Shown here one piece after another: positions 22,438 to 62,685 of a stretch of DNA of 64,000 nucleotides. The notes under the pieces are model-generated. The model was not told where the DNA came from and searched no databases. It saw nothing but the letters and a program-made list of their open reading frames with translations. This DNA comes from a virus (lineage: Duplodnaviria > Caudoviricetes). The stretch spans positions 64,001 through 128,000 of IMG/VR virus record IMGVR_UViG_3300029288_000063, one strand, 5' to 3'. Numbering within the stretch: position 1 is the first letter of the stretch; each line of letters starts with the position of its first letter. Both the position numbers and the translations under genes were made by a program.

Positions 22438-22953
22438 ATGGATGGTGATGTTAAAAGGTCCAAAAGGGTTGATATTCCTGCCTCGGCAATAGAGGCTATG
22501 AAAATGGCCTCGCGTCATATGGACGAGCAGGACAGGGAAAAAGAAGGTCTGCCGCCCGACCTTCCGAAAGGTCACCCGGCGATTCGTGCCATGATGTCAC
22601 AGCGTCATCGTGAGTCGATGGGTGCGTCTAAAGAAAAGCCACAAAAGAAACAACAGAAAAAGCAGGCATCTGTTGATGCCGGTCAAAAGGAAAAGGTCAA
22701 GAGGTGTGTTGACCTGATTGGTTCAATCTCTGAACGGTCTGTCGCTGTAGACAAGTCACTGCGTGAACTATATGAAGCCTCTGTTGAGGCTTCAGAGTTG
22801 ATGAGTGATAATCCATCCATGCGCGTGCGTCTTGGACGTCTTGGTCGGATGATATTTTCTTTTCACGCCGTTCTGCGGGATTGTTGTGGGCCGCTTCAGC
22901 ATGTTGCCCAGCAGATGCAACAGAATCCTGACAGTATGAAGTCGGAGGAATAA
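22438..22953 (+). CDS. hypothetical protein
   Basis: GGAG SD. Confidence 0.6.
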   Translation: MDGDVKRSKRVDIPASAIEAMKMASRHMDEQDREKEGLPPDLPKGHPAIRAMMSQRHRESMGASKEKPQKKQQKKQASVDAGQKEKVKRCVDLIGSISERSVAVDKSLRELYEASVEASELMSDNPSMRVRLGRLGRMIFSFHAVLRDCCGPLQHVAQQMQQNPDSMKSEE

Positions 22954-22956
22954 CAC

Positions 22957-25900
22957 ATGGCCAAGCGGAAAGTAAGCGCGAAATCCGAACCGGTTGTTGC
23001 CGCCTCGAAAGACGGCATTATACGTGTGCCAGTAACGAGTGCGTCGGCACGGACAGGTAAGGTTGACCCGGTGAAAACGAAGATTGCCGCGAAGCAGGAG
23101 CGGTTCCAGCGTATCGCGTCCGGCGTTGCAAATGGGATGTATCGTGAGGCAGGCATGATGATGTCCACCTCGCCGAATGCAACCGGCACGTGGGGTTCAG
23201 GTAGCCTTCCTGCGTTCCGAACGTCCTATGCGTCGGGAAACACGATGGTCGGAGGTGGAACGACAGATATTCCGCCGTACTTCCAAATCATGAACGACAA
23301 AAACGGCGGGTTGATTTACTGGCCGGTATCGTTGCGTGAGAAGTATGAGTGGTATCGATATTGGGCGAGGTGCTTCACAAACCCCAACGTCATGATTACA
23401 CGAGAAGATGGAACAGAAGCACCGCTGTGCTCTTTCAAAAAGGGTGATCGGGTTATCAACGGAATCGGCGGGGTTACTGAGGTTTCAGAGGTAACGACTC
23501 AAAAATATGAGGGTGCTGTTGTTCGCCTTGATGTCGAGGCTAATCGGTGGAACGATATTGAGACGACACCAGAACATCCATTTTTTGTTCTTCGTTCTGA
23601 GAATGTTTGTCGGCACCACAACCGGATTACAGACGAGGACGGTGTGGAGCATCGCAAGACGAGCGTTGAGATTAACTTTTTGCCGGAGTGGGTTGAGGCG
23701 AAGGATATTCGTGTTGGGGATATGTTGATTGTTCCTTCAACGAGTAAATCCTTCGAGTCAGTTATGTCTGTTGAGCGTGCGAGGCTTGTTGGTTATTATG
23801 CGGCAGAGGGCAATGTAAACTTTGATCGAAACGGAGAACCAGAAGCTGTCACGTGGAGCCTTGGGACTCACGAGGACGATTTGATCGAAGAGATAAAGAG
23901 CCTGTGCGTTACAGAGCTTGGTTGTGTTCCTTCCACTTACAATTACCCAGAACGTGAGTCTTGTACCTCTCTGAGGGTGTGGGATAGGGAATTTGCAAAA
24001 TGGGTCGTTGAAAACTGCGGGGTTGGTTCTCATTCCAAGAAGTTTTCTCGGCTCATTTTTGAGGCGGACGATGAGACTGTTCGCCATATTGTTGGCTGCT
24101 GGTTGAACGGTGATGGAAATCGGGACGATGCGGAGGCTGAAGGTCAGGTTGATGGGACAACCTGTTCGTTTGATATGGCAAACCAATTGTTCCTGATGAT
24201 GGTGCGAGTTGGACTTGCGCCAGCTAAAAGGGTGAAAGATGTGACGGTTTTTGGTTGCGGAGAGAAGTCTGGAAACAAGGCTTGTCGAATCTTTTTGCCT
24301 CCGATGTTTGCCAACAAGATCGTTGAGTACTTCAAGTGGGATGGGTGTGTGAAGTCTCATCGTCATCGAAAGTACAACCACGATGGGAACATGTTGTTGC
24401 CAGTTCGAGGGATAAAGCTTCGTGAGTTTTCTGGTGTTATTTGGAACCTCTCAACGAGTGGCTCTTCGTACGAAGAACGCACTTTCTTGGTTCACGGGAT
24501 GGTCACCCACAACACTGACGCCTTTATTGGGCGCGGGTTGGAGCTTCTGGCCGACCTTCCAATGTCACGCATCTCTTTAAACATGCCGAAGATGGAGAAG
24601 AAGCCCAAAAAGCTCCGCGATGAGATTTACGCCTTCTTCACGGGGATGTGCGAGAACATCGGGCTGTTTCGCAGGTTGCAGGAAAACCTGTGGGAGTACA
24701 ACCTGATTGGGAACGTGTACATCTATCACGAATGGAACAGCAAGCGCAAGATGTGGGAGCGCATCGTGACGTTGCCGCCTGAAGAGGTGAGTGTTTTTCA
24801 GTATCCTTTCCAAGACAACGCTCGCGTTGAATACCGTCCGGAGGCACTCATGCGGGTTGTTCAAGCCGCAGATGCTGGCAATATGGATGGTGATGATATC
24901 TCTCAAAGAATATTTGCCGGTATTCCGAAGGATGTCGCAGAGATGATTCGTGGGCAGGGATGCGTGATCTTTGATAGCTCACCTATTATTGATAGCAAGG
25001 TTGGGTCGTTTGTTTACCATATGGCAAGGCGTCGGTCGCCATATCTTGACCTCGGGGCTTCTGTGTTGGAGCGTGTTCTTGTTCCAATGCTGATGAAGGA
25101 GCACTTCCGCTATACCCAGCTTGGTTTGGCGTCGCGTAATATGACTCCGAAAAATAAGGTTTCCGCTCCGGGGTTGACACAGCCTGAGCTTGACGACCTT
25201 CGGATGCAGATGGATTTGTCCTATATGGACCCCGATTATTCCATCGTGACCAACTACGATTGGGACTGGGAACAGATTGGTGCCGACGGACGTTTGCTTG
25301 ATTTGCAGGGCGAATATGAAGCTATTGAAAATCAGGTGTTTTCGGCTATGGGTGTGACACGTGAATTGATGACGGGTGAAGGCTCGTGGTCAGGCAACCG
25401 CGTCACCATCGAGATTATCAACACAATGTTCCTCCTGACCCGTGAGATGCTTCGTGAGTATGTAGAGAACTTTTTGTTTCGCCCTGTAGCCATTGCACAT
25501 GGATGGTATGAAGAGGACAAGAATGGTGTCAGGGAATACTGGTATCCGAAGCTTGGGTTCAATCGCCTGTCAATTCGTGATAATTCGGAAGTTTTTGACA
25601 GTCTCTTCCAGCTCTACATGAAGGGTTCTGTCCCGGTCGATGTTATGTACGAGCTGTTCAACCTCGACCCGGAAGCCATGCATGAAAAAATGCACTCTGA
25701 TGTGTTTACGTTGAAAGATTCAACATTCAACCGGCTTCTGGAAGAGGTCAACTTTTCTGTTGGTCAAAAAATTGTTGAATCGACTGACGTTATGCAGAGG
25801 GTTGCTGATTACCTTGGTTTGAAGGTTTCGGACAATCCTCCTGCCAGTGATGAAGATGGTGGATTCGGCGGTGGTGGGTTTGATGGTGGCTTTGAATCCG

Positions 25901-41877: not shown

Positions 41878-42073
41878 GTGCTTACTTTCCTGACCACCAC
41901 ATCATCGAACGGATTCTCGATGTCCCTCAACTGCGGTAATAAGCGCAGTCAGAGGCAAGGGCATATTACGTGCAAAATGCCCGGTGGTGGAAAGACGGAG
42001 ACCTGACGTAGTAGAGGGTTCTCATAAATGTCTTCCCGCCGCCGGAGCTTAAAAGTTCCGGCGGTTTTGTTTT
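41878..42073 (+). promoter_or_regulatory. leader ORF (41878-42006) with antiterminator/terminator attenuator
   Basis: GGAG SD; 41981-41996 is complementary to 42030-42045; hairpin 42038-42065 and T tract. Confidence 0.65.
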
Positions 42074-42985: not shown

Positions 42986-43094
42986 CAGCACGCTTCAGAC
43001 ATGGGTTACTTCTTTTCTCATACAAAAGACCTGACGGTTCGACTCCGTCGTTGGGTGGCCCCGGTAACGTCGCCTGTGTCGCTTTTTGGTGCTG
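42986..43094 (+). ncRNA. Y RNA-like ncRNA
   Basis: CAGCAC-GCTTCA-GACATGGG-TTACTTC ... T arm ... CCTGTGTC-GCTTTTTG-GTGCTG. Confidence 0.7.
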
Positions 43095-43106
43095 GTTTTT
43101 CGGTTT

Positions 43107-43247
43107 GCGTCACACTTCAGGATGGACATACTTCTGACGCTTAATAGCCGGCTGCGGGTTCGATTCCCGTCGGTCAACTTCGGTTGGCTGTTGCTCATGG
43201 TTGAGCCGTTTGTTCGGTTGAGCCGTTCGTTCGACTTTTGGTGACGC
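43107..43247 (+). ncRNA. Y RNA-like ncRNA with permuted tRNA domain
   Basis: Shared terminal module; T arm, UUCG-closed acceptor-like stem, D arm. Confidence 0.75.
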
Positions 43248-43258
43248 TTTTGTATTGC

Positions 43259-43332
43259 GACGGAGGAGTTGGGTTCGAGTCCCGACCGGAAGCCCATACG
43301 GGATTCCGTGGCGTAACAGGCAGCGTGCCGTC
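43259..43332 (+). ncRNA. stand-alone permuted tRNA-like element
   Basis: GACGG/CCGTC closing stem, T arm GGGTTCGAGTCCC, looped acceptor stem, D-like arm. Confidence 0.55.
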
Positions 43333-43345
43333 ATCTTGTTTTTTT

Positions 43346-43505
43346 CCACACGCTTCAGCGATGGGTTACTTCCATGCTAAGGACGAGGTCGCAGGTTCGA
43401 ATCCTGCTCCCCCAACCCTTGCCCCTGTGATTCTGCGGGGGTATGGGCTGGGGGATGGCTCAGCGGTAGAGCGCGTAAACTAGCCTGTTGCGACTTTTGG
43501 TGTGG
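43346..43505 (+). ncRNA. Y RNA-like ncRNA with permuted tRNA domain
   Basis: Shared module; GCAGGTTCGAATCCTGC precedes GGCTCAGCGGTAGAGC. Confidence 0.8.
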
Positions 43506-45263: not shown

Positions 45264-45272
45264 AAATTTAAT

Positions 45273-45300
45273 GCGCCAGTAGCTCAGTGGTAGAGCACAA
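45273..45300 (+). pseudogene. orphan tRNA 5' fragment (Gly-like)
   Basis: GCGCCAG-TA-GCTCAGTGGTAGAGC-ACAA, no T arm. Confidence 0.55.
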
Positions 45301-48109: not shown

Positions 48110-48325
48110 ATGGATTCGATTCAAGCCGCTATTTCACGTTTGTTTGTTTTGGTAGAAAAAGCAGAATCCAACCAAGAAGACATTTCGGTAAGCCGATATG
48201 TATGTCGGTTGTGCGGTGAAAGTCGACAGTCACTTTGCGAGTGTATAGATCACATTGTTGGTCTGCATTCTGAAAGGCTGAATGAGGTTCGCAACGCTGT
48301 AGATGTGATATGTAAGCGGGTGTAG
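48110..48325 (+). CDS. small C2H2-like Zn-finger protein
   Basis: CRLC...HIVGLH. Confidence 0.45.
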   Translation: MDSIQAAISRLFVLVEKAESNQEDISVSRYVCRLCGESRQSLCECIDHIVGLHSERLNEVRNAVDVICKRV

Positions 48326-48373
48326 CTCAATGGTAGAGCGCCAGCCGTATTAGAAAGGATTTGGGATAGATTA

Positions 48374-48447
48374 GCGCCTATGGTGTAGTGGCCGCATCTT
48401 TGCCTTCCAAGCAAAGGGTCCGTGTTCAAATCACGGTAGGCGCTCCA
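48374..48447 (+). tRNA. tRNA-Gly(TCC), nested replacement
   Basis: TTTGC-CTTCCAA-GCAAA, CCA. Confidence 0.9.
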
Positions 48448-48522
48448 AACCAATAAATTCTTTATATTCGACCCGCTGTTTTGGAACCCGTAATTGGGTT
48501 CCAAAACAGGAGGGGGGTCGAC

Positions 48523-49185
48523 ATGAAGAGTGATGAACGACAAGAGGCAAGAAAACTCAGGGGACAGGGATTATCTGTCAAAGAAATAACAAGGAGAGTC
48601 GGAGTCGCAAAGTCGTCAGTGAGTCGCTGGGTCAGAGACATCGAGCTTACTGACGAACAAAAAATGAACCTCCGACCATGCACAGTTGCTTTTGGAATCA
48701 ATCGATTAAGGTATTTTTCTGAACTTCGGGACTCATACAGAGAAGTAGGGAGAGACCAAGCCAAGAAAAACAACCTTTTGCATGCAATGGGGTGCATGCT
48801 CTACTGGGCAGAAGGATGGCACACAAACAATCGGAACTGTATGAAGTTTTCAAACTCAAGTGTTCCGATGATGAAATTGTTTCTGAAGTTCCTGCGGAAT
48901 GAGATGTCTGTAAAAGATAATGATGTCATCATCAAGATACATTGTTATACAGACAAAAGGAGCGCAAGCGACATTGAATCGCACTGGCTTAACGAACTCG
49001 GTCTTCCGCAAAACTGTTTGAGGAAAACGGTGGCAGACAAAAGGCCGGGGTGTACGCAGAACAAACGCAACAACATTCTGGAATGGGGAACATGCCATCT
49101 GATTATACATGACGTGAGAGTCGTTCAAGGCATCTACGGCGCAATCGAGGAGTATGGGAAATTCAGGAATGGTGCATGGGATTGA
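48523..49185 (+). CDS. HTH + LAGLIDADG-like endonuclease
   Basis: GLSVKEITRRVGVAKSSVSRW; GCMLYWAEG, FSNS; A-rich composition. Confidence 0.7.
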   Translation: MKSDERQEARKLRGQGLSVKEITRRVGVAKSSVSRWVRDIELTDEQKMNLRPCTVAFGINRLRYFSELRDSYREVGRDQAKKNNLLHAMGCMLYWAEGWHTNNRNCMKFSNSSVPMMKLFLKFLRNEMSVKDNDVIIKIHCYTDKRSASDIESHWLNELGLPQNCLRKTVADKRPGCTQNKRNNILEWGTCHLIIHDVRVVQGIYGAIEEYGKFRNGAWD

Positions 49186-49247
49186 GCCAAGCTGGTTATG
49201 AGGGTTCGATTCCCTTCACCCGCTCCAAATTTGGAAGGTGGTGAGAC

Positions 49248-49475
49248 GTGGACAGGGAACACTTAAAATCTTTGATCGAATCACTGAAATCCATCAACCT
49301 CGACGAGTTTGACAGTATATCTGACGATGAGCTTCAAAAGAGGCTTGATAAGGCTCGTGCGTGTAATCCGGAAGGAATGGTGGCGTACGAGAAAATGTTG
49401 AGCGAAATTGACATTGATGAACTCGGACAGGACATCGGTTGTGAGTTGAGGGACGACGTGACAGATATGGTTTGA
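49248..49475 (+). CDS. hypothetical acidic protein
   Basis: GGAAGGTGG SD-like site. Confidence 0.5.
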   Translation: MDREHLKSLIESLKSINLDEFDSISDDELQKRLDKARACNPEGMVAYEKMLSEIDIDELGQDIGCELRDDVTDMV

Positions 49476-49708
49476 GTTTTTTTGGGGAAAGTGAGGGGGC
49501 AACAAGTGTCGGCACAGGAAGGTGTTTGTTGTGTTGTGGCGTTTCCGCATTCCGCAGAGTGTAAGGGTTGTGGGAAGTCGTTCAAAAAGAGAAGTCGTTT
49601 TCATCTTTATTGCAACAGATGTAATAAAAAGGTTTCACGAACGCCTCGGTTTGGATGTGGGACGTTTACAAGACGCCATTCTTGTCCTGATGAAGAAATT
49701 AAATAAAC

Positions 49709-49896
49709 GGCGGCAGAGCCTCGGTGGTCGGGGGACGGTGTGAAAAGAAGTCCAATATGGGAAATACAAAAAGAAAGTCTTGAAGAGATTATCTCTTTGT
49801 CGGCTTCCGTGTCAGAGGTTTTGCGGCGATTGGGGATGAAAACAACGTGCGGTGGAACATATCGAACGCTGATGCGAAGGATAAAAGAAGAAATAA
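49709..49896 (+). pseudogene. tRNA-Cys-like 5' half (49709-49739) and truncated HNH N-terminus (49740-49896)
   Basis: GGCGGCA-GA-GCCTCGGTGGTCGGGG-GACGG; peptide resembles the N-terminus of the 62073 HNH. Confidence 0.6.
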
Positions 49897-49972
49897 GGCG
49901 AGCGAACCCATGCGGCATGGGGACGGACTGCAAACCCGTTAAACTCTGGTTCGACTCCAGCGCTCGCTTCCA
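49897..49972 (+). tRNA. tRNA-Cys(GCA), divergent
   Basis: CT-GCA-AA loop, U73, CCA. Confidence 0.82.
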
Positions 49973-49985
49973 TAAAGGGACGGTA

Positions 49986-50531
49986 ATGTACCCTGAGCAT
50001 CTTTTACCAGTCTTGAAGGCGATGTTGGTCGAGTTGAATTCGACTCGGCTTGAGGTTTTGCTTGTACCTGCGGAAGACCAAAGGCATTGTGGTCATAAAG
50101 TGCGTGTGGTAGAATCGAACAACCCGTGGTGGTATCGGGAAATTTGTTCCCGGTATCCGTCGCGGTCAAAGTCGCATAGTCGTTGTCCGTGGAAGCACAC
50201 AAGGGTGAAAAGGCGAAGGATTTTGGAAGCCCTTGAAAAAATGTCTGCCGATATTTGCTCGAAAAGTTCCTTTGTGGACGATATCCTTGAGGTGGCGGAA
50301 GAAGAGTTGTGCCGATGGGAAGAGGAACGCATAGAGTGGGAGGAACGGTCTACACACTACACCGTGGCGCAATTGGTGGCGCACGACGCTCTGAACGTCG
50401 GGGTTGAAGGTTCGAGTCCTTCCGGTGTAACCATTACCCCGTCGTCTAACGGTAGGACACAAGACTTTGACTCTTGTAACGATGGTTCGAATCCATCCGG
50501 GGTAACCAAATTTGAAGGAGTTCCGTGGTGA
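49986..50531 (+). CDS. hypothetical protein (frame continues through two tRNA-Gln genes; true end uncertain)
   Basis: Start follows tRNA-Cys; protein-like up to about 50357. Confidence 0.4.
   Translation: MYPEHLLPVLKAMLVELNSTRLEVLLVPAEDQRHCGHKVRVVESNNPWWYREICSRYPSRSKSHSRCPWKHTRVKRRRILEALEKMSADICSKSSFVDDILEVAEEELCRWEEERIEWEERSTHYTVAQLVAHDALNVGVEGSSPSGVTITPSSNGRTQDFDSCNDGSNPSGVTKFEGVPW
50358..50433 (+). tRNA. tRNA-Gln(CTG)
   Basis: Cloverleaf, CCA. Confidence 0.9.
50435..50508 (+). tRNA. tRNA-Gln(TTG)
   Basis: Cloverleaf, CCA. Confidence 0.92.
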
Positions 50532-50830
50532 AGATGTATATTCTGATAAAAAATGACTTGGCTGTTGGTCATTCGGTGTTGGCTGCCGCGCACGCTTCGT
50601 TGGCGTGCTATCTGAAGTTCCAGAACGACGAAAGAATGCGCCAGTGGGTGTCAGGCGTGTTTTACAAGGTTGTCTGTGTGGTGTCGCCTGAAGAGTTTGA
50701 GAGGGCGAAGGAGGTCGAGGACAATGTCGTCATGACGGAGTCGTCCCTTGGTGGTGCGGAAGTTGCTGTTGCGTTTTGTCCGAGAGAAGAATGGCCGAAG
50801 ATGTTCAGGTTTCTTCGGCTTTTGAAATAG
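50525..50830 (+). CDS. Pth2-family peptidyl-tRNA hydrolase-like protein
   Basis: KMYILI..DL..G...AAHAS..W...YKVVC. Confidence 0.7.
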   Translation: MVKMYILIKNDLAVGHSVLAAAHASLACYLKFQNDERMRQWVSGVFYKVVCVVSPEEFERAKEVEDNVVMTESSLGGAEVAVAFCPREEWPKMFRFLRLLK

Positions 50831-50833
50831 AAT

Positions 50834-50910
50834 GGTGGTATAGCTTAGTTGGCCGAAAGCACCGGCTTCATAAGCCGGTATCGGTGGTTCGAATCCACCT
50901 ACCACTACCA
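50834..50910 (+). tRNA. tRNA-Met(CAT)
   Basis: Cloverleaf, CCA. Confidence 0.9.
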
Positions 50911-50916
50911 TAATTT

Positions 50917-51008
50917 TGCGGGGGAGTGAAACGGATTTCCCGAAAGGGAATAATCATTCAAGCCCCATAAGCTTGAGATAGTGGGTTCGACTCCCATCCC
51001 CGCGTCCA
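50917..51008 (+). tRNA. tRNA-Met(CAT), fMet-like, with a hairpin inserted in the D loop
   Basis: TGCGGGG/CCCCGCG, CC-CAT-AA loop, CCA. Confidence 0.8.
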
Positions 51009-51029
51009 AATTGCAACGGAGGTTGTATA

Positions 51030-51266
51030 ATGGGTCATATGACGAAGGCGTCTGATTGTATTTGTTGCGTTTGTCATAAGGAAAAGGCTGTTGCCTTTTG
51101 GCCTATGGTTGATATCGACATTCCTGCCCATCCGTATTGTAAGAAGTGTTTGGATGAGGCACAGTTGAAGGTGATGATTCAGTTGGCAGAAACGGACTTT
51201 TATGGGTTGCCGAAGAAAACAAATTCACCGAAGAAGGCGAAAGCAAAGAAAAAGCGAGGTGGTTGA
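51030..51266 (+). CDS. small Zn-finger protein
   Basis: CCVC..YCKKC; GGAGG SD. Confidence 0.6.
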   Translation: MGHMTKASDCICCVCHKEKAVAFWPMVDIDIPAHPYCKKCLDEAQLKVMIQLAETDFYGLPKKTNSPKKAKAKKKRGG

Positions 51267-51359
51267 TGAAGTGGCTATTTAATATTGTTTTCCCGTTTGG
51301 GATTCCGTATTGATATCGCCAGCATAGCTCAATTGGTAGAGCACCTGCTTTGTTGTAAC

Positions 51360-51433
51360 GCTGGCATAGTTCAATGATAGAATAGTTGTCTTGTAAGCAT
51401 CAGACGATGGTTTGATTCCATCTGCCAGCTCCA
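51360..51433 (+). tRNA. tRNA-Thr(TGT), nested divergent replacement
   Basis: CT-TGT-AA loop, A19:U56 compensatory pair, CCA; one anticodon-stem mismatch. Confidence 0.75.
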
Positions 51434-51506
51434 ACAAACAGAAACGCAGACCAAGTGACCAATTCTTTTATGGTCTCCATTCGAATAGCGTAGTCGGCTA
51501 TTTTGG

Positions 51507-52199
51507 ATGGAGGACAAGAGAATGTTCAAGTGCGAAAAGTGTGGTAAGGAGTTTGACAACGAGAGGTCGTTTAGTGGGCACAAAGGTGCCTGCGGGAAGA
51601 AAAAAGAGTGTCCTGTTTGTTGTCGGATGATAAGTGTTTCGAATTTTATTGCGCATGTGAAGTCGCATGAAAACGACAAGGCTTGTCCAGCGTGTGGTGG
51701 GGTGGTTCATGGTCGTGGACGCTTTTGCTCGAAAAGTTGTGCTGCCTCGGTGAACAATGTTGGTGTTGTTCGCAATGGGGTAAAAAAGAAAGACGCGTTT
51801 TGTTTAACGTGTGGAAAGATTTTGGTTCGACGTCAGGTTAAATATTGTTCAAATCATTGCCAACAAGAAAAGAAATATAGAGAATACATAGGTCGGTGGT
51901 TGATTGGAAAAGAAACAGGCAACATGGATGGTTGTATGAATATATCAAATTATGTTCGACGTTGGCTATACGAAACGAGGGGGAAAAGGTGTGAGGGGTG
52001 CGGGTGGGCGAGAAAACATTCGATGGACGGTTCGATTCCGATTCAAGTCGAGCACATTGATGGTAATGCTCAAAACACGACACCTGAAAACTTGAGGATA
52101 TTGTGTCCGAGTTGCCATAGTTTAACGTTGACCTTTGGAAACAGAAACAAGGGAAAGGGTCGATCAAAGAGGCGATCAAAGAGGTGTTCAAAAGAGTAA
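51507..52199 (+). CDS. Zn-finger HNH endonuclease
   Basis: EHIDGN..N..PENLRILCPSCH; several CxxC. Confidence 0.9.
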   Translation: MEDKRMFKCEKCGKEFDNERSFSGHKGACGKKKECPVCCRMISVSNFIAHVKSHENDKACPACGGVVHGRGRFCSKSCAASVNNVGVVRNGVKKKDAFCLTCGKILVRRQVKYCSNHCQQEKKYREYIGRWLIGKETGNMDGCMNISNYVRRWLYETRGKRCEGCGWARKHSMDGSIPIQVEHIDGNAQNTTPENLRILCPSCHSLTLTFGNRNKGKGRSKRRSKRCSKE

Positions 52200-52309
52200 G
52201 CAGGCGGTTGGGGGTTCGAGTCCCTCTGCTGGCTCCATAAAGAAGCTACTTTCCTTCATGAAAACGCCGATATGGCTCAGGAGGTACTCTACCTACTTGG
52301 ACAACAAAT

Positions 52310-52383
52310 GCTGGCATAGTTCAGTGGTAAAACAGATTCTTGGTAAGAATCAGACGAGGGTTCGATTCCCCCTGCCAGCTCCA
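52310..52383 (+). tRNA. tRNA-Thr(GGT)
   Basis: Cloverleaf, CCA; same family as 51360-51433. Confidence 0.88.
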
Positions 52384-52517
52384 AATTGGACTGTTATGAA
52401 AAGATTGCATCATGACCCGGAAAACGGTATAAGTAAAAGGCAGTCGTTGTATGCCAAGAAGACCAGAGCTTGGCTCAGGGGTGTGATGTGTGTTTTGAAA
52501 AAAAAAGGAGAAAATGA

Positions 52518-53021
52518 ATGAGGGTTATTGACGCTCCCGAGTCGTTGTCAGATTTACCGCGCCCGGCAGTGTTCTTGGCGGGCGGGATTACCGGGTGTCC
52601 GGATTGGCAAAATAAGGTTATCGCAGGTCTGTCGGACCTTGACTTTGGGTGTGTCCTGAACCCGCGTCGGGCGAATTTTCCGATTCACGACCCCAATGCG
52701 GCGCGGGAACAAATCACTTGGGAGTTCAACGCCTTGCATAAGGCTGATTTGTTCTCGATGTGGTTTTGCAACACGGAGTCAGACCTACCGATTTGTTTTT
52801 ACGAGTTGGGTCGGTATGTCGCGATTCGGCAGGTAAACGTGCAGCTTGACCGTGTTCTTATTGGTGTTGAGACGGGGTTTAAGCGGTCACAGGATGTGTA
52901 TATTCAAATGGAATTGGTAAACAAGGGAATTTCGGACAACATTTTCTCATCGTTGGACGATTATATAGTGGCGCTTCGTGAGTTGGTGTTGAACTTTGTC
53001 TCGAACACAGTGTTCGAGTAA
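52518..53021 (+). CDS. nucleoside 2-deoxyribosyltransferase-like protein
   Basis: VFLAGGI..CPDWQ, LNPRR, QITWE, YELG. Confidence 0.8.
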   Translation: MRVIDAPESLSDLPRPAVFLAGGITGCPDWQNKVIAGLSDLDFGCVLNPRRANFPIHDPNAAREQITWEFNALHKADLFSMWFCNTESDLPICFYELGRYVAIRQVNVQLDRVLIGVETGFKRSQDVYIQMELVNKGISDNIFSSLDDYIVALRELVLNFVSNTVFE

Positions 53022-55251: not shown

Positions 55252-55473
55252 ATGATTGACAACCACACTGTTGGTTCTGTGAAACGCATTTCGCCGGTGT
55301 TGAATAGGAATGCTATTGTAAAGAGTGGTGGAGTCCTCCAACAGTCGGAGGAGGTTGGTTATGTTGTAAGGGAGAAAATCGGCGTTGGAGTATATAACCC
55401 ATCCGCGTTAAATCTGTTCTTAAAAAAAGAGTCTGAAGGGGCGTTGCCTGTTTATGATGAAGACCCGAATTGA
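55252..55473 (+). CDS. hypothetical protein
   Basis: GAGG SD. Confidence 0.45.
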   Translation: MIDNHTVGSVKRISPVLNRNAIVKSGGVLQQSEEVGYVVREKIGVGVYNPSALNLFLKKESEGALPVYDEDPN

Positions 55474-57641
55474 AATTCTGTTATGAACTTGATATAGGAA
55501 AGCTGAATATGATCAGGAGAGTTCTTTTTTCGATAGTAGTGGTTGCTGCTATTTGCACTGTTGTTTTAGTGACGATATCAATGACTGTCGTCAAAAATGG
55601 ATTCTCTTCTGTAGATGAGGATCGGGTGATTGAATCCTCACACCTTGTTCGTTCTATCGTTCAAAGAGAATTGCTCGGTTTGGCCAGCACTGTTGGGGAT
55701 TGGTCACGGTGGGATGATGCTTGGGAGTATGTTAATCAAGACGGCAAAGATAGGTCTTTTGTCGAACAAAATATTGATCTCGCTTCACTATTACAGTTGC
55801 GCGTGTTTTATGTCATGTTTCTTGGACGGGATGGACATCCTATTTCCGAATTTGTTGTTCGTGACGGGGACATCTATGAGGTTCCGAATTCCGAGCTGTC
55901 CTTGGCGTCTATAGATGGTTTTCAATCGGCATCTGAACGGTGCATGCGCGGCGAGGTTGTGCAGGGTTTGTCTTGGATAGGAGACAAGATGTCCTTGGTG
56001 GCAATGTCGTCTATCTCTAAGTCGGACGGTTCGTGTGTCGGAAACGGTATGTTGGTTTTCTGTCGTGATGCGTCCGGTATGGTTTCGGAAATTAACAAGA
56101 CGTTTGAGTCGTTTTCGATATCCGGTGATTGTTCAAGCGAGATAATGAACGACCTCGTTATCAATACCTCCGATTCGAGCGTGTCTGGGACTTTTCTTGT
56201 TCCCAGTGTTGAGGGAGGGAAAAACTATCTCGCAAGCCTATCTGTTCCGAGCTTTTCCGAGTTGCAGGGCAACCGCATTATCCTTGTTTTCGTTTTTGCG
56301 AGTATAGGGTTTGTTTTCGTTGTTTCGATTGCGCTGTGGAAGGTTGTTGATAGGATGGTATTATCGAGGCTTTCTGTCACAATGTCCGCTGTCAAAGAGA
56401 TTGGTCGTTCTGCCGATGTGACAAAGAAGCTGCCCGGTGGTGAATGTTCTGATGAGTTTGGCGTTTTCATTCACAACTTGAACGATATGCTTGAATCTAT
56501 TCGCGTGTCAGAAGAAAAGACAAAAGAATCAGAAAATGCTTTAAAACGTTCTGAGCGAGTAACACTTCTTGGCAAATTCGCGGAGGGTATTGCGCACGAC
56601 CTGAATAACCTTTTGGCAATTATTAAGGGCTATGCGGACTCGTTGAAGTTTGCCGGTTCACTTTCTGAATCTCTCGTGCTGTGTGACAACATAAGTTCCA
56701 CAGTCGGAGAATGTACGGCTTTGATTGGTAAGATTTTGTCGTTTTCGAGGCGTGGTAATATCAACTTTGTGCCGGTTGATCTGCACCCATTGTTGGGTGA
56801 TATATGTTCGATGTTTCATTACGCCATAGAGAAAAAGAGTGTATGTTTTGAATCGGTTATGGGGGCGGAGAACAGTGTGGTTCATGGGAACAAGTCTGAA
56901 ATTCAAAATGCCATATTGAGTCTGTTGGTTAATGCCCGAGAGGCTGTTTCTGATAATGGTCATATCTTTATCAAATCAAGAAACGTTATCGACCCTGACG
57001 GTTTGTCTTCTGGTGAATATGTGGAGGTGGAGGTGAGTGATGACGGTGTTGGAATTCCTCCGTCGATTATGAAAAATCTTTTTGTTCCATTTCAAACAAC
57101 AAAGGAATATGGAAAGGGTCTTGGACTTTCTTTTGTTCATGGGACGGCGGAAAGACACAAAGGAAGGGTAAGTGTTTCCAGTATTCCCGGTAAAACATCT
57201 GTGCTGCTCTTGATTCCGTGCTCTGAAAAAAAGGCTAGTGTTCCGGAGAAAAACAGCGTTATGAGACATAAGACTCCGTGTGTTGTGCATGTCGAAGATG
57301 AGGCGGCCATTCGTGAAATCGTTAAGTTGCAGCTTGAGGATGATGGGTTTTGTGTGAAATCTTTTGCGCATGGTGATGGTGCGATTAGTTATGTTCGTGA
57401 ACACAAGCAAGATGTTGACTTTGCGATTCTCGACTTCGCGGTTCCTCCTGTGGATGGTGTTTACATCTTTCATGAGATGAGAAAGATTATACCAACTCTT
57501 CCAGTTGCGTTTATGACTGGTTTTTGTGACGCTAGGGCTGAAGACTTGCGTGCCGAGGGGGCGGTCGGTGTTTTCGAGAAACCAATCAATTTCAAGTCAG
57601 TTCTTAGTCTTCTGAACGATATACTTGGAAAGCGTGGGTAG
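55470..57641 (+). CDS. membrane hybrid histidine kinase (CHASE4-HAMP-HisKA-HATPase-REC)
   Basis: DWSRWDD, two TMs, DEFG, AHDLNN, DDGVG, GLGL, VEDE. Confidence 0.9.
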   Translation: MKFCYELDIGKLNMIRRVLFSIVVVAAICTVVLVTISMTVVKNGFSSVDEDRVIESSHLVRSIVQRELLGLASTVGDWSRWDDAWEYVNQDGKDRSFVEQNIDLASLLQLRVFYVMFLGRDGHPISEFVVRDGDIYEVPNSELSLASIDGFQSASERCMRGEVVQGLSWIGDKMSLVAMSSISKSDGSCVGNGMLVFCRDASGMVSEINKTFESFSISGDCSSEIMNDLVINTSDSSVSGTFLVPSVEGGKNYLASLSVPSFSELQGNRIILVFVFASIGFVFVVSIALWKVVDRMVLSRLSVTMSAVKEIGRSADVTKKLPGGECSDEFGVFIHNLNDMLESIRVSEEKTKESENALKRSERVTLLGKFAEGIAHDLNNLLAIIKGYADSLKFAGSLSESLVLCDNISSTVGECTALIGKILSFSRRGNINFVPVDLHPLLGDICSMFHYAIEKKSVCFESVMGAENSVVHGNKSEIQNAILSLLVNAREAVSDNGHIFIKSRNVIDPDGLSSGEYVEVEVSDDGVGIPPSIMKNLFVPFQTTKEYGKGLGLSFVHGTAERHKGRVSVSSIPGKTSVLLLIPCSEKKASVPEKNSVMRHKTPCVVHVEDEAAIREIVKLQLEDDGFCVKSFAHGDGAISYVREHKQDVDFAILDFAVPPVDGVYIFHEMRKIIPTLPVAFMTGFCDARAEDLRAEGAVGVFEKPINFKSVLSLLNDILGKRG

Positions 57642-57706
57642 CTCAATGGCAGAGCGAGGGCTTCTAAAGCCCTGCGTTATGGGTTCGAGTCCCATCCTAC
57701 GCACCA
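57632..57706 (+). tRNA. amber suppressor tRNA (CTA)
   Basis: AGGGC-TT-CTA-AA-GCCCT, canonical D and T arms, CCA. Confidence 0.85.
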
Positions 57707-60278: not shown

Positions 60279-60433
60279 GCAGCACTCTTCAGTATGGAGT
60301 TACTTCCTTTCAAACCGAAAATGTGGGTTCGATTCCCACACCTGATGCCGCAACACACGACGGTTCGCCGTCCAGTCGGGTTCGTCTAATGGTAGGACTC
60401 GGGCGCAAGTCTCCATGCGTTCTTTGGTGCTGT
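60279..60433 (+). ncRNA. Y RNA-like ncRNA with permuted Glu-like tRNA domain
   Basis: Shared module; CTTTCAA-ACCGA, T arm, then GTCTAATGGTAGGAC D arm. Confidence 0.8.
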
Positions 60434-61395: not shown

Positions 61396-61544
61396 ATGAC
61401 GCGCTTCGGTAGGGAGATACTTCCATAAGGCTGGTGTCCCTCGGGACGTGTGGGTTCGAGTCCCACAGACTTAACGAAAGTTGGGCGATGGCGAAATGGC
61501 AGACGCACCGGAAAAAAGAAACTCCTTGCGACTTTTGGCGTCAT
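61396..61544 (+). ncRNA. Y RNA-like ncRNA with permuted Leu-like (class II) tRNA domain
   Basis: Shared module; variable arm and T arm precede GGCGAAATGGCAGACGC. Confidence 0.8.
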
Positions 61545-61555
61545 TTTTGAATTTT

Positions 61556-61718
61556 CGGCACGCTTCAGTGATGGGTTACTTCTCACCCAATGAGAGAGGT
61601 CGTAGGGTTCGAATCCCTACCCGCCCGGCCATGAAGGCTTTCGATGAGAGCCTTCATACTTCGGGCGGTAGCTCAGTGGTAGAGCGCTACAACTAGCCTG
61701 TTGCGACTTTTGGTGCCG
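61556..61718 (+). ncRNA. Y RNA-like ncRNA with permuted tRNA domain
   Basis: Shared module; T arm, extended closed acceptor stem, GCTCAGTGGTAGAGC. Confidence 0.8.
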
Positions 61719-61974: not shown

Positions 61975-62072
61975 AATATAGGCGTATAGCTCAATTGGTA
62001 GAGCACCGGTTCCAAAAACCTTCGGTTTGATAAATAATTTTATAATCTCGTGTCTGTTGAATGGAGACAGAC

Positions 62073-62600
62073 ATGAGGAAGACAAAGTGGACAGATGAAG
62101 AATTGTCGTTGTATGTTGCCGAGTCGTTTGGTTTTTCTGACCTTTTGAGAAAGTTAAAACTTTCAGTATCTAGTGGAAATTACAAGACAATAAGAAGACG
62201 TATAGAAAGTCTTTGTTTGGATACTAGGCATTGGACTGGAAAGTCTCAATGTGGAGATCGAAACCCAAGTTTTCGTCACAGAATTCCGCTTGAACAGATT
62301 TTGGTAGAGAATGGGTTTTATAGGAATCTGCCAAGATTGAAACAGAGGTTGATTAAAGAGGGTTTGTTAGAAAACAAGTGTGCTATTTGCGGACTTAGTT
62401 CTGTGTGGAATAATAAGAAAATTGTTATGATTTTGGATCATGTAAATGGTGAATCATTTGATCATAGATTTGAAAATTTGAGACTTGTTTGTCCGAATTG
62501 TAATAGTCAGATTGATACTTTTGCTGGAAGAAACAAGAAGAAAAAACGAACGGATGCAGCAAGTGGGTGTTGCGGTCAGACTCCAAATCTGACGTCTTAG
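62073..62600 (+). CDS. HNH endonuclease
   Basis: CAICG, LDHVNG..DHRFENLRLVCPNCN; AT-rich. Confidence 0.9.
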   Translation: MRKTKWTDEELSLYVAESFGFSDLLRKLKLSVSSGNYKTIRRRIESLCLDTRHWTGKSQCGDRNPSFRHRIPLEQILVENGFYRNLPRLKQRLIKEGLLENKCAICGLSSVWNNKKIVMILDHVNGESFDHRFENLRLVCPNCNSQIDTFAGRNKKKKRTDAASGCCGQTPNLTS

Positions 62601-62627
62601 CGGGTTCGATTCCTGTCATCCGTGCCA
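62550..62627 (+). tRNA. tRNA-Trp(CCA), nested divergent replacement
   Basis: ACGGATG/CATCCGT, TCAGA-CTCCAAA-TCTGA, C8:G14, G73 and CCA. Confidence 0.85.
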
Positions 62628-62685
62628 ATCTTGTAATCCGTTCAAAACCGGCGGTTGGGGGTTCGAGTCCCTCTGCGCCTGCCAT

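Follow-up and report, generated by a model that had tools for sequence, protein, structure and literature searches.

The locus analysed here raises the question of how a phage tRNA gene can be split in its anticodon loop by a nuclease gene, and why a second tRNA with the same anticodon should have arrived with that nuclease. The locus lies in a stretch of 64,000 nt (the window) taken from the linear, 253-kb record of a landfill phage with 57 tRNA genes, within the first block of its array of tRNA genes; among sequencing runs, a landfill metagenome matches the record best. All of its parts are encoded on the plus strand. The 5' half of a resident tRNA-Thr(UGU) gene (51318-51353) provides the 5' strand of the acceptor stem, the D arm, the 5' strand of the anticodon stem and the loop up to U36. 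An 844-nt insert then interrupts the anticodon loop. It consists of a 6-nt spacer whose first letters repeat the anticodon and a following AA (51354-51359), a second tRNA-Thr(UGU) of 74 nt with an encoded CCA, called by both ARAGORN and Rfam (the passenger, 51360-51433), an 88-nt leader, and a gene for a zinc-finger and HNH endonuclease (51522-52199). The 3' half of the resident gene (52198-52237) supplies A37-A38, the 3' strand of the anticodon stem, the variable loop, the T arm, the 3' strand of the acceptor stem, U73 and CCA, and is followed by an intact tRNA-Thr(GGU) with the pair G19:C56 (52310-52383), the closest relative of the passenger.

Joined together (51318-51353 plus 52198-52237), the resident halves form a 76-nt tRNA-Thr(UGU) in which all stems are Watson-Crick or G-U paired and the loop reads TT-TGT-AA. 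Its ARAGORN score of 123.5 is exceeded by only 5 of the genome's 57 tRNAs. The four observations made in the preliminary description of this DNA were all confirmed in the sequence, and the split-plus-replacement locus is real. The assembly is supported by one 10.9-kb Logan contig from run X1, possibly the source sample, which covers 49202-52800 with zero differences at a depth of 47. The junctions had been described as exact and free of loss; nothing is indeed lost upon rejoining, but each junction carries a GT (51352-53 and 52196-97), so that a cut at any of the registers 34/35, 35/36 and 36/37 fits equally well. This locus is miscalled by tRNA finders with intron options, and ARAGORN run in this way reports a Thr(AGT) with an 844-nt intron.

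The split threonine gene has company in the same genome. When the 40-kb array was searched for orphan tRNA halves able to pair with one another, only three pairs turned up, of Gly, Thr and Trp tRNAs. In each case the halves flank a nuclease-like ORF together with an intact tRNA of corresponding type. The Gly cassette (48316-49227, plus strand) splits a tRNA-Gly(UCC) and carries a passenger tRNA-Gly(UCC) at 48374-48447, besides an HTH-containing ORF that ends at 49185 and belongs to a different family. Intact Gly(UCC) genes in four sequencing runs have TT between the positions corresponding to 48346 and 49187, and the Gly cassette cannot be restored by splicing, because these 2 loop nt have been lost from the split gene. 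The Trp cassette (61980-62684, plus strand) splits a Trp-type tRNA at an unclean junction and holds an HNH ORF (62073-62603) and a passenger tRNA-Trp(CCA) (62550-62627). Its passenger is located after the HNH gene and overlaps the 3' end of that gene, and its halves carry an imperfect 7-nt duplication; the sole way of rejoining them that keeps a canonical U33 yields UCA, an opal-reading anticodon. A copy of the Gly-cassette ORF that is about 95% identical was seen in run X2.

The nuclease gene of the Thr cassette encodes 225 aa when read from the ATG at 51522, which is led by a Shine-Dalgarno sequence and is the probable start, or 230 aa when read from 51507. The protein matches the Pfam HNH domain above cut-off and PHROG 1271 (E 2.5e-24), and has several N-terminal zinc-binding units followed by a C-terminal HNH domain. 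Its structure model has a pLDDT of 90; Foldseek returned weak matches only for the whole model, to zinc-finger and McrA-type HNH structures, and the closest protein relative is P0002, at 59%. In an alignment of 58 relatives H183, N195, H204, C162, C165 and C200 are invariant, and C203 and N190 near-invariant. The protein thus has a nuclease domain of a homing family, with its catalytic and zinc residues intact.

The leader of this gene contains a long RNA hairpin (51456-51524, plus strand; fold of -31 kcal/mol, z -3.8 against shuffles), in which the Shine-Dalgarno sequence at 51509-51513 is paired and which extends to the AUG at 51522. As judged from the fold, the hairpin likely represses HNH translation; control of this kind, by a hairpin that sequesters the ribosome binding site, is described for the endonuclease gene mobE in a work cited in PMC2988022. 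A scan for promoters and terminators gave nothing above chance. In the 110 nt before the starts of family genes the T-loop-like motif TTCGAA is enriched about five-fold (15 of 115, against about 3), an enrichment partly confounded by orphan tRNA halves; the motif may possibly be an operator of these genes. TTCGAA also occurs upstream of the HNH gene in the window, at 51480-51485. Many HNH relatives are preceded by a TATAAATA-like late promoter placed between inverted repeats.

The HNH stop codon TAA (52197-52199) coincides with tRNA positions 36-38, and had been taken as a stop borrowed from the target. That the codon falls on the junction is clear, and its register recurs: a TAA occupies positions 36-38 of an orphan 3' half in four relatives (L035, L068, L083 and L116), and a TAG does so in a fifth, the same-register stop being found in at least 4 of 24 (P about 2e-5 under a uniform null). 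The borrowing itself is another matter, and the stop may be native. Because the tail of the protein, at 26 residues after CPxCH against a family median of 25, is of typical length, and the family's stops are most often TAA (90 of 153), a crossover within a shared (G)TAA microhomology explains the stop as well as borrowing does. We read the recurrent register as probably reflecting joining at shared TAA/AA microhomology, or selection for termination, and not as proof of borrowing. The idea that the junction shortened the C-terminus of the nuclease was rejected on the same tail length.

Apart from the passenger, the contig has no intact Thr(UGU), and ACA makes up about a fifth of the threonine codons in long ORFs. 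The determinants of E. coli threonyl-tRNA synthetase (ThrRS) are C2-G71, G35 and U36. The passenger keeps all of these, together with G1-C72, A37, A38 and U73, and with its cloverleaf and CCA it has the predicted make-up of a bacterial-type tRNA-Thr. It had been suggested that the inner tRNA be checked for a pseudogene score; by Rfam it does not score as one, its 61.3 bits being mid-range (rank 21 of 45 in the window, cut-off 29) and equal to those of the neighbouring Thr(GGU) (60.8). Its ARAGORN score of 101.7 is the lowest of 57 in the genome, because the program penalises both A19 and U56; when these two bases are reverted the score is 110.8. The passenger also has a U28.U42 mismatch (51386/51400), a U31.G39 wobble and an A15.C48 Levitt mismatch. 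U28.U42 need not be a sign of decay, because the common T5-like tRNA-Thr(UGU) has the same mismatch; the passenger's anticodon arm matches the arm of that tRNA at 16 of 17 nt.

The passenger matches the Thr(GGU) at 52310-52383 at 60 of 74 ungapped positions (81%), the next best among 100 Thr tRNAs being 53 of 74. Against the rejoined resident tRNA the figure is 53 of 76 (70%), with 9 nt across the anticodon common to both. The preliminary statement that the inner tRNA resembles its neighbour but not the split gene thus holds for the neighbour, and is slightly overstated for the split gene. Compared with the neighbour, the pairs 19:56, 30:40 and 51:63 have changed in a compensated manner, two mismatches are repaired, two wobbles are new and one pair is broken, and 20 of the 21 stem pairs are retained. 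In a random-substitution test such conservation had a P of 0.0003 when the 14 changes were counted from the neighbour, and of 0.006-0.08 when counted from a repaired ancestor.

The pair A19:U56 is present in the passenger as first reported (51377 and 51413), and was held to show selection for folding and a compensatory change in the replacement tRNA. Selection for folding is supported, but mainly by the stem changes against the neighbour and not by A19:U56 itself. The two bases do covary: the pair occurs in 24 of 824 phage tRNAs, and 24 of the 29 tRNAs with U56 have A19 (OR 332). However, the change may have been inherited, since a Thr(GGU) of an unrelated phage (L165), with no such HNH gene nearby, shares the passenger's first 25 nt and A19:U56; the pair may thus predate the cassette. 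An engineered double change at 19:56 is tolerated by a protein-only RNase P (PMC4797305). The possibility that U56 gives immunity against a SegB-like enzyme that reads the T-loop was unsupported, as A19:U56 is not enriched beside these nucleases (6 of 174, against 17 of 598). Non-canonical T-loops were counted in 21 of 57 HNH-adjacent Thr(UGU) tRNAs, against 2 of 16 (p 0.075).

To place the cassette in a wider context we collected 153 distinct relatives of the nuclease from viral and metagenome contigs. A tRNA stands directly beside the HNH gene in 131 of them. Thr(UGU) fills 65 of 192 HNH-adjacent slots, compared with 18 of 659 other tRNAs at the same loci (OR 18), an association whose p-value is overstated because the relatives are not phylogenetically independent and each cultured genus may represent one event. 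The isoacceptor labels are clumped on the HNH tree (35 changes, against 54.6 when shuffled). The nearest relatives of the window's HNH for which DNA is at hand (UFBoot 99) lie behind Thr(GGU), as in L008 and L154, or behind Gln, not Thr(UGU), and the nuclease's own target may therefore differ from the Thr(UGU) gene that it splits. This neighbourhood, where the closest relatives follow Thr(GGU) genes, and the passenger's likeness to the gene next door together suggest that the passenger has a GGU-type body whose anticodon was switched to UGU.

Group I introns occur generally in the anticodon loops of bacterial tRNA genes, and some family members lie in or beside group I introns inserted after TGT and before AA (36/37) of tRNA-Thr. 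The one in L142 matches RF00028 of Rfam with an E of 8e-12, and homologous intron pieces are present in L009, L111 and L133; the call for L009 is based on similarity to L142, the 3' part of the L009 intron alone giving no RF00028 match. In L142, the intron (2120-2420) interrupts a tRNA-Thr(UGU) and a free-standing HNH gene starts just downstream, at 2501, as in a collaborative-homing arrangement. The layout of a split gene plus passenger is found in two further relatives, L073, where a tRNA-Ala within a tRNA-Ala rejoins exactly, and L130. Single-half relics are found in L012, L065, L035, L068, L083 and L116, and most relatives retain one tRNA half or none. Short inserts without an ORF, each a tRNA within a tRNA, were seen in L063 (2587-2741), L022 (2250-2395) and L052 (668-865), and concern a Thr-UGU split at 36/37, an Asn-GUU and an Asp-type tRNA; all three are Lak-like, and those in L063 and L022 may be decayed cassettes.

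Cultured phages of E. coli, Salmonella and Klebsiella carry HNH relatives next to a swapped tRNA, and alleles lacking the HNH gene exist for family members in three cultured genera. In T5-like phages (2 filled and 3 empty alleles compared) the tRNA-Thr(UGU) beside the HNH gene differs from its HNH-less allele almost only in the anticodon stem, the anticodon loop being unchanged; this variant is found in 7 of 7 HNH-bearing phages and only 2 others. A wholly different tRNA-Thr is present in exactly the 4 Asteriusvirus records that bear the HNH gene. The Sugarlandvirus phages B01 and EK80 have a tRNA-Thr in which the replaced stretch begins inside the acceptor stem, although similar tRNAs also occur without HNH. 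The allele with the nuclease is thus one in which the target is altered, split in the window phage and changed in the three cultured groups, and would presumably be resistant. Intronless homing on an anticodon-arm target would be expected to leave just such a pattern, which would correspond to at least three independent events. For the window phage itself no empty allele was found: the exact-junction pattern matched only an unrelated tRNA (L084), and patterns from the 3' half and the passenger T arm had no match. Among the read joints listed, none was a Thr with the right loop, and one was an Ala(UGC) look-alike. A metagenome scan with two sequences had no match. HNH relatives beside a tRNA-Thr also lie in Enterococcus phage iF6 (L173) and Salmonella phage MET_P1_137_112 (L184), unannotated in the GenBank records.

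The best explanation that we can offer for the anatomy, the intact active-site residues, the family link to Thr(UGU), the allele swap in cultured phages and the hairpin is that the cassette moves by intronless homing with a resistant passenger tRNA and is aimed at tRNA-Thr(UGU) genes, and we hold this to be probable. It is supported by the Thr(UGU) link, the introns at the same site, the allele swaps, the same layout in relatives, the two sister cassettes and the hairpin over the ribosome binding site. The cleavage and its site, the resistance and charging of the passenger and the order of events are what we infer. Counting against the explanation are the negative search for an empty allele of this phage, the dependence among the relatives counted, the position of the nearest relatives behind Thr(GGU) or Gln, the pristine and exactly rejoining halves in a genome with RtcB and an Rnl2-type ligase, and the passenger's ARAGORN score, the lowest in the genome. 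According to this model, the HNH enzyme would nick or cut a sensitive tRNA-Thr gene of a co-infecting phage within its anticodon arm, and repair off the donor would bring in both the HNH gene and a passenger tRNA-Thr that has a different, resistant anticodon arm. The usual outcome would be that the old tRNA gene is overwritten. Here, joining at a short microhomology would have placed the module in the anticodon loop, so that the target site was destroyed, the two halves remained as fresh scars and the phage was left with the passenger as its only Thr(UGU). The promoterless cassette would be co-transcribed with the tRNA operon and freed by tRNA processing, with HNH translation damped by the hairpin, and the passenger would be a Thr(GGU)-type body with a UGU anticodon, related to the gene 72 nt downstream.

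One may extend this model to the whole family, a generalisation to which we give about an even chance. According to it, this widespread HNH family would be specialised on the anticodon arms of genes for single isoacceptors (Thr-UGU in most cases), and would be rendered harmless either by a self-splicing intron or by a resistant passenger. The passenger route would constitute a natural cleave-and-rescue drive that rewrites phage anticodon arms, its decayed forms would be the tRNA-in-tRNA introns of Lak and other huge phages, and in the present case an anticodon switch would have turned a member of the neighbouring Thr(GGU) lineage into the passenger.

It is unlikely that the insert is instead a true tRNA intron, excised by an endonuclease and sealed by the phage RtcB or Rnl2-type ligase so that the phage obtains the outer tRNA as well as the inner one. 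Such splicing would agree with halves that are exact, undecayed and predicted to re-pair around the insert, with a site compatible with the 36/37 group I introns of the same tRNA, and with the presence in this genome of RtcB (E 1.6e-62) and of a PF09414 Rnl2-type ligase (E 1.5e-22), the two at record positions 22691-23920 and 135903-136532, and the Lak tRNA-Thr(UGU) offers a precedent (PMC6784885). However, no ribozyme match, group I (RF00028) or other, was found in 51200-52450 at E up to 10, the insert has no similarity to the group I introns of the relatives, no register has both a U at the end of the 5' exon and a G at the end of the intron, and the precursor fold has no bulge-helix-bulge at the junctions. 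The archaeal-type endonuclease EndA (PF01974) is absent from the contig, which is an estimated 75% complete, while the control search was positive in four archaea. Furthermore, the Gly sister cassette is short of two loop nt, most relatives have kept one half or none, and a passenger with the same anticodon would be redundant if the outer tRNA were restored.

We consider it quite unlikely that the swap was driven by selection on the phage, with a passenger that escapes host anticodon nucleases and an HNH enzyme that merely supplies the breaks by which the array is reshuffled, as SegB does under Septu pressure. The anticodon arm is the part of a tRNA that anticodon nucleases read, and the differences between filled and empty alleles are indeed concentrated there, but the swapped alleles leave the anticodon loop as it was. 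The two T5-like phages that have the variant tRNA without HNH could speak for such selection, yet they are also expected after loss of the nuclease. SegB does amplify tRNA loci and thereby allows escape from defence (PMC13096335), but the tie of one nuclease family to one isoacceptor, and its riding on introns at that very site, would be left unexplained. Escape from anticodon nucleases is compatible with intronless homing as an added benefit.

Very unlikely, finally, is a neutral accident, in which a local Thr(GGU) copy and a neighbouring HNH gene were duplicated into Thr(UGU), the copy having switched G34 to U34 or being in decay while a host tRNA reads ACA. The gene next door is the passenger's closest relative and the nearest HNH relatives follow Thr(GGU) genes, and such a local origin may hold as one step within the homing explanation. 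As an account of the whole locus, it would have to produce three cassettes with three different nucleases in one genome, each with a matching passenger, and the same design in relatives. The decay that might be read from the lowest ARAGORN score and from the U28.U42 and A15.C48 mismatches is countered by the compensated stem changes and by the near-identity of the anticodon arm (16 of 17, mismatch included) to the T5-like arm, which makes it a viable form. The insert is no integrative element with a tRNA att site (a tRNA and an HNH gene only, no integrase, a 2-nt end repeat), no group I intron (no RF00028 match, end rules violated in every register) and, as a zinc-finger and HNH protein and not a GIY-YIG one, its enzyme is no member of the SegB family.

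The homing explanation sets the cassette beside several known systems without equating it with any of them. SegB of T4/T6 is a free-standing GIY-YIG homing endonuclease in a phage tRNA cluster (PMC2330249; PMC13096335) that likewise targets tRNA genes, its homing converting the flanking tRNAs to the donor version. However, SegB sits between intact tRNA genes and recognises a T-loop motif of many tRNAs with no isotype preference, whereas the window cassette encodes an HNH enzyme tied to one isoacceptor, lies inside an anticodon loop and carries a substitute with the same anticodon. In Lak phages, the tRNA-Thr(UGU) anticodon loop is also interrupted by an insert bearing a tRNA-like sequence, and alleles with and without the insert exist; this "intron", which encodes a possible tRNA, was called enigmatic (Devoto et al. 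2019, PMC6784885), and no nuclease gene was reported in it, whereas the window insert encodes an HNH. The free-standing HNH endonucleases mobE of Aeh1, in nrdA, and mobA of T4, in gene 60, split genes too (PMC2988022). They are promoterless and occupy a critical part of a host gene without intron or intein, but their split protein genes still work from pieces, whereas the split RNA gene of the window is presumably dead and its function supplied by the passenger. Group I introns that carry HNH ORFs and sit in the anticodon loops of tRNA genes (L009, L142) share the nuclease family and the 36/37 insertion point and are harmless by self-splicing, while no ribozyme is present in the window insert. 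Integrative elements with tRNA att sites also insert in a tRNA gene with its function preserved, but they encode an integrase and duplicate the end of the gene to make it whole again, whereas here the substitute is a complete, separate gene, 70% identical to the one it replaces. Our literature search, which covered few subscription papers, did not find a split-plus-replacement design described.

If the model is correct, a selfish nuclease that brings a substitute along needs no splicing in order to occupy an RNA gene. Nested and "intron-containing" phage tRNAs, a question that has stood since the Lak paper, could then be explained without introns, and a selfish cause would be on offer for divergent phage tRNA anticodon arms, which are usually credited to escape from host anticodon nucleases. 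The filled and empty pairs in T5-like phages, Asteriusvirus and Sugarlandvirus make the target, the resistance and the drive testable by crosses.

Several further features of the array were seen. Shortly before the cassette, at 50911-51009, there is a tRNA-like gene with a CCA end, a loop with a UAU/CAU region and an orphan T arm at 50981, which both ARAGORN and Rfam missed. An orphan tRNA 5' half at about 45272-45300, whose matching 3' half is absent, is possibly an older scar. The array also holds a PTH2-like gene (50525-50830), a CHASE4 hybrid histidine kinase gene (55470-57641) and a tRNA with a CUA anticodon, resembling an amber suppressor (57632-57706); long ORFs still stop at TAG, and amber recoding of the genome was not supported, as all three stops are used in them. 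An RNA frame containing T-arm-like and D-arm-like pieces in permuted order is repeated at about 42990-43130, 43330-43500, 45070, 60280-60430, 61400-61545 and 61560-61715, with no Rfam match found. Upstream of the first tRNA block, a 42-codon leader (41878-42006) contains ACA and GGA, the codons that are read only by the Thr and the Gly passenger, respectively.
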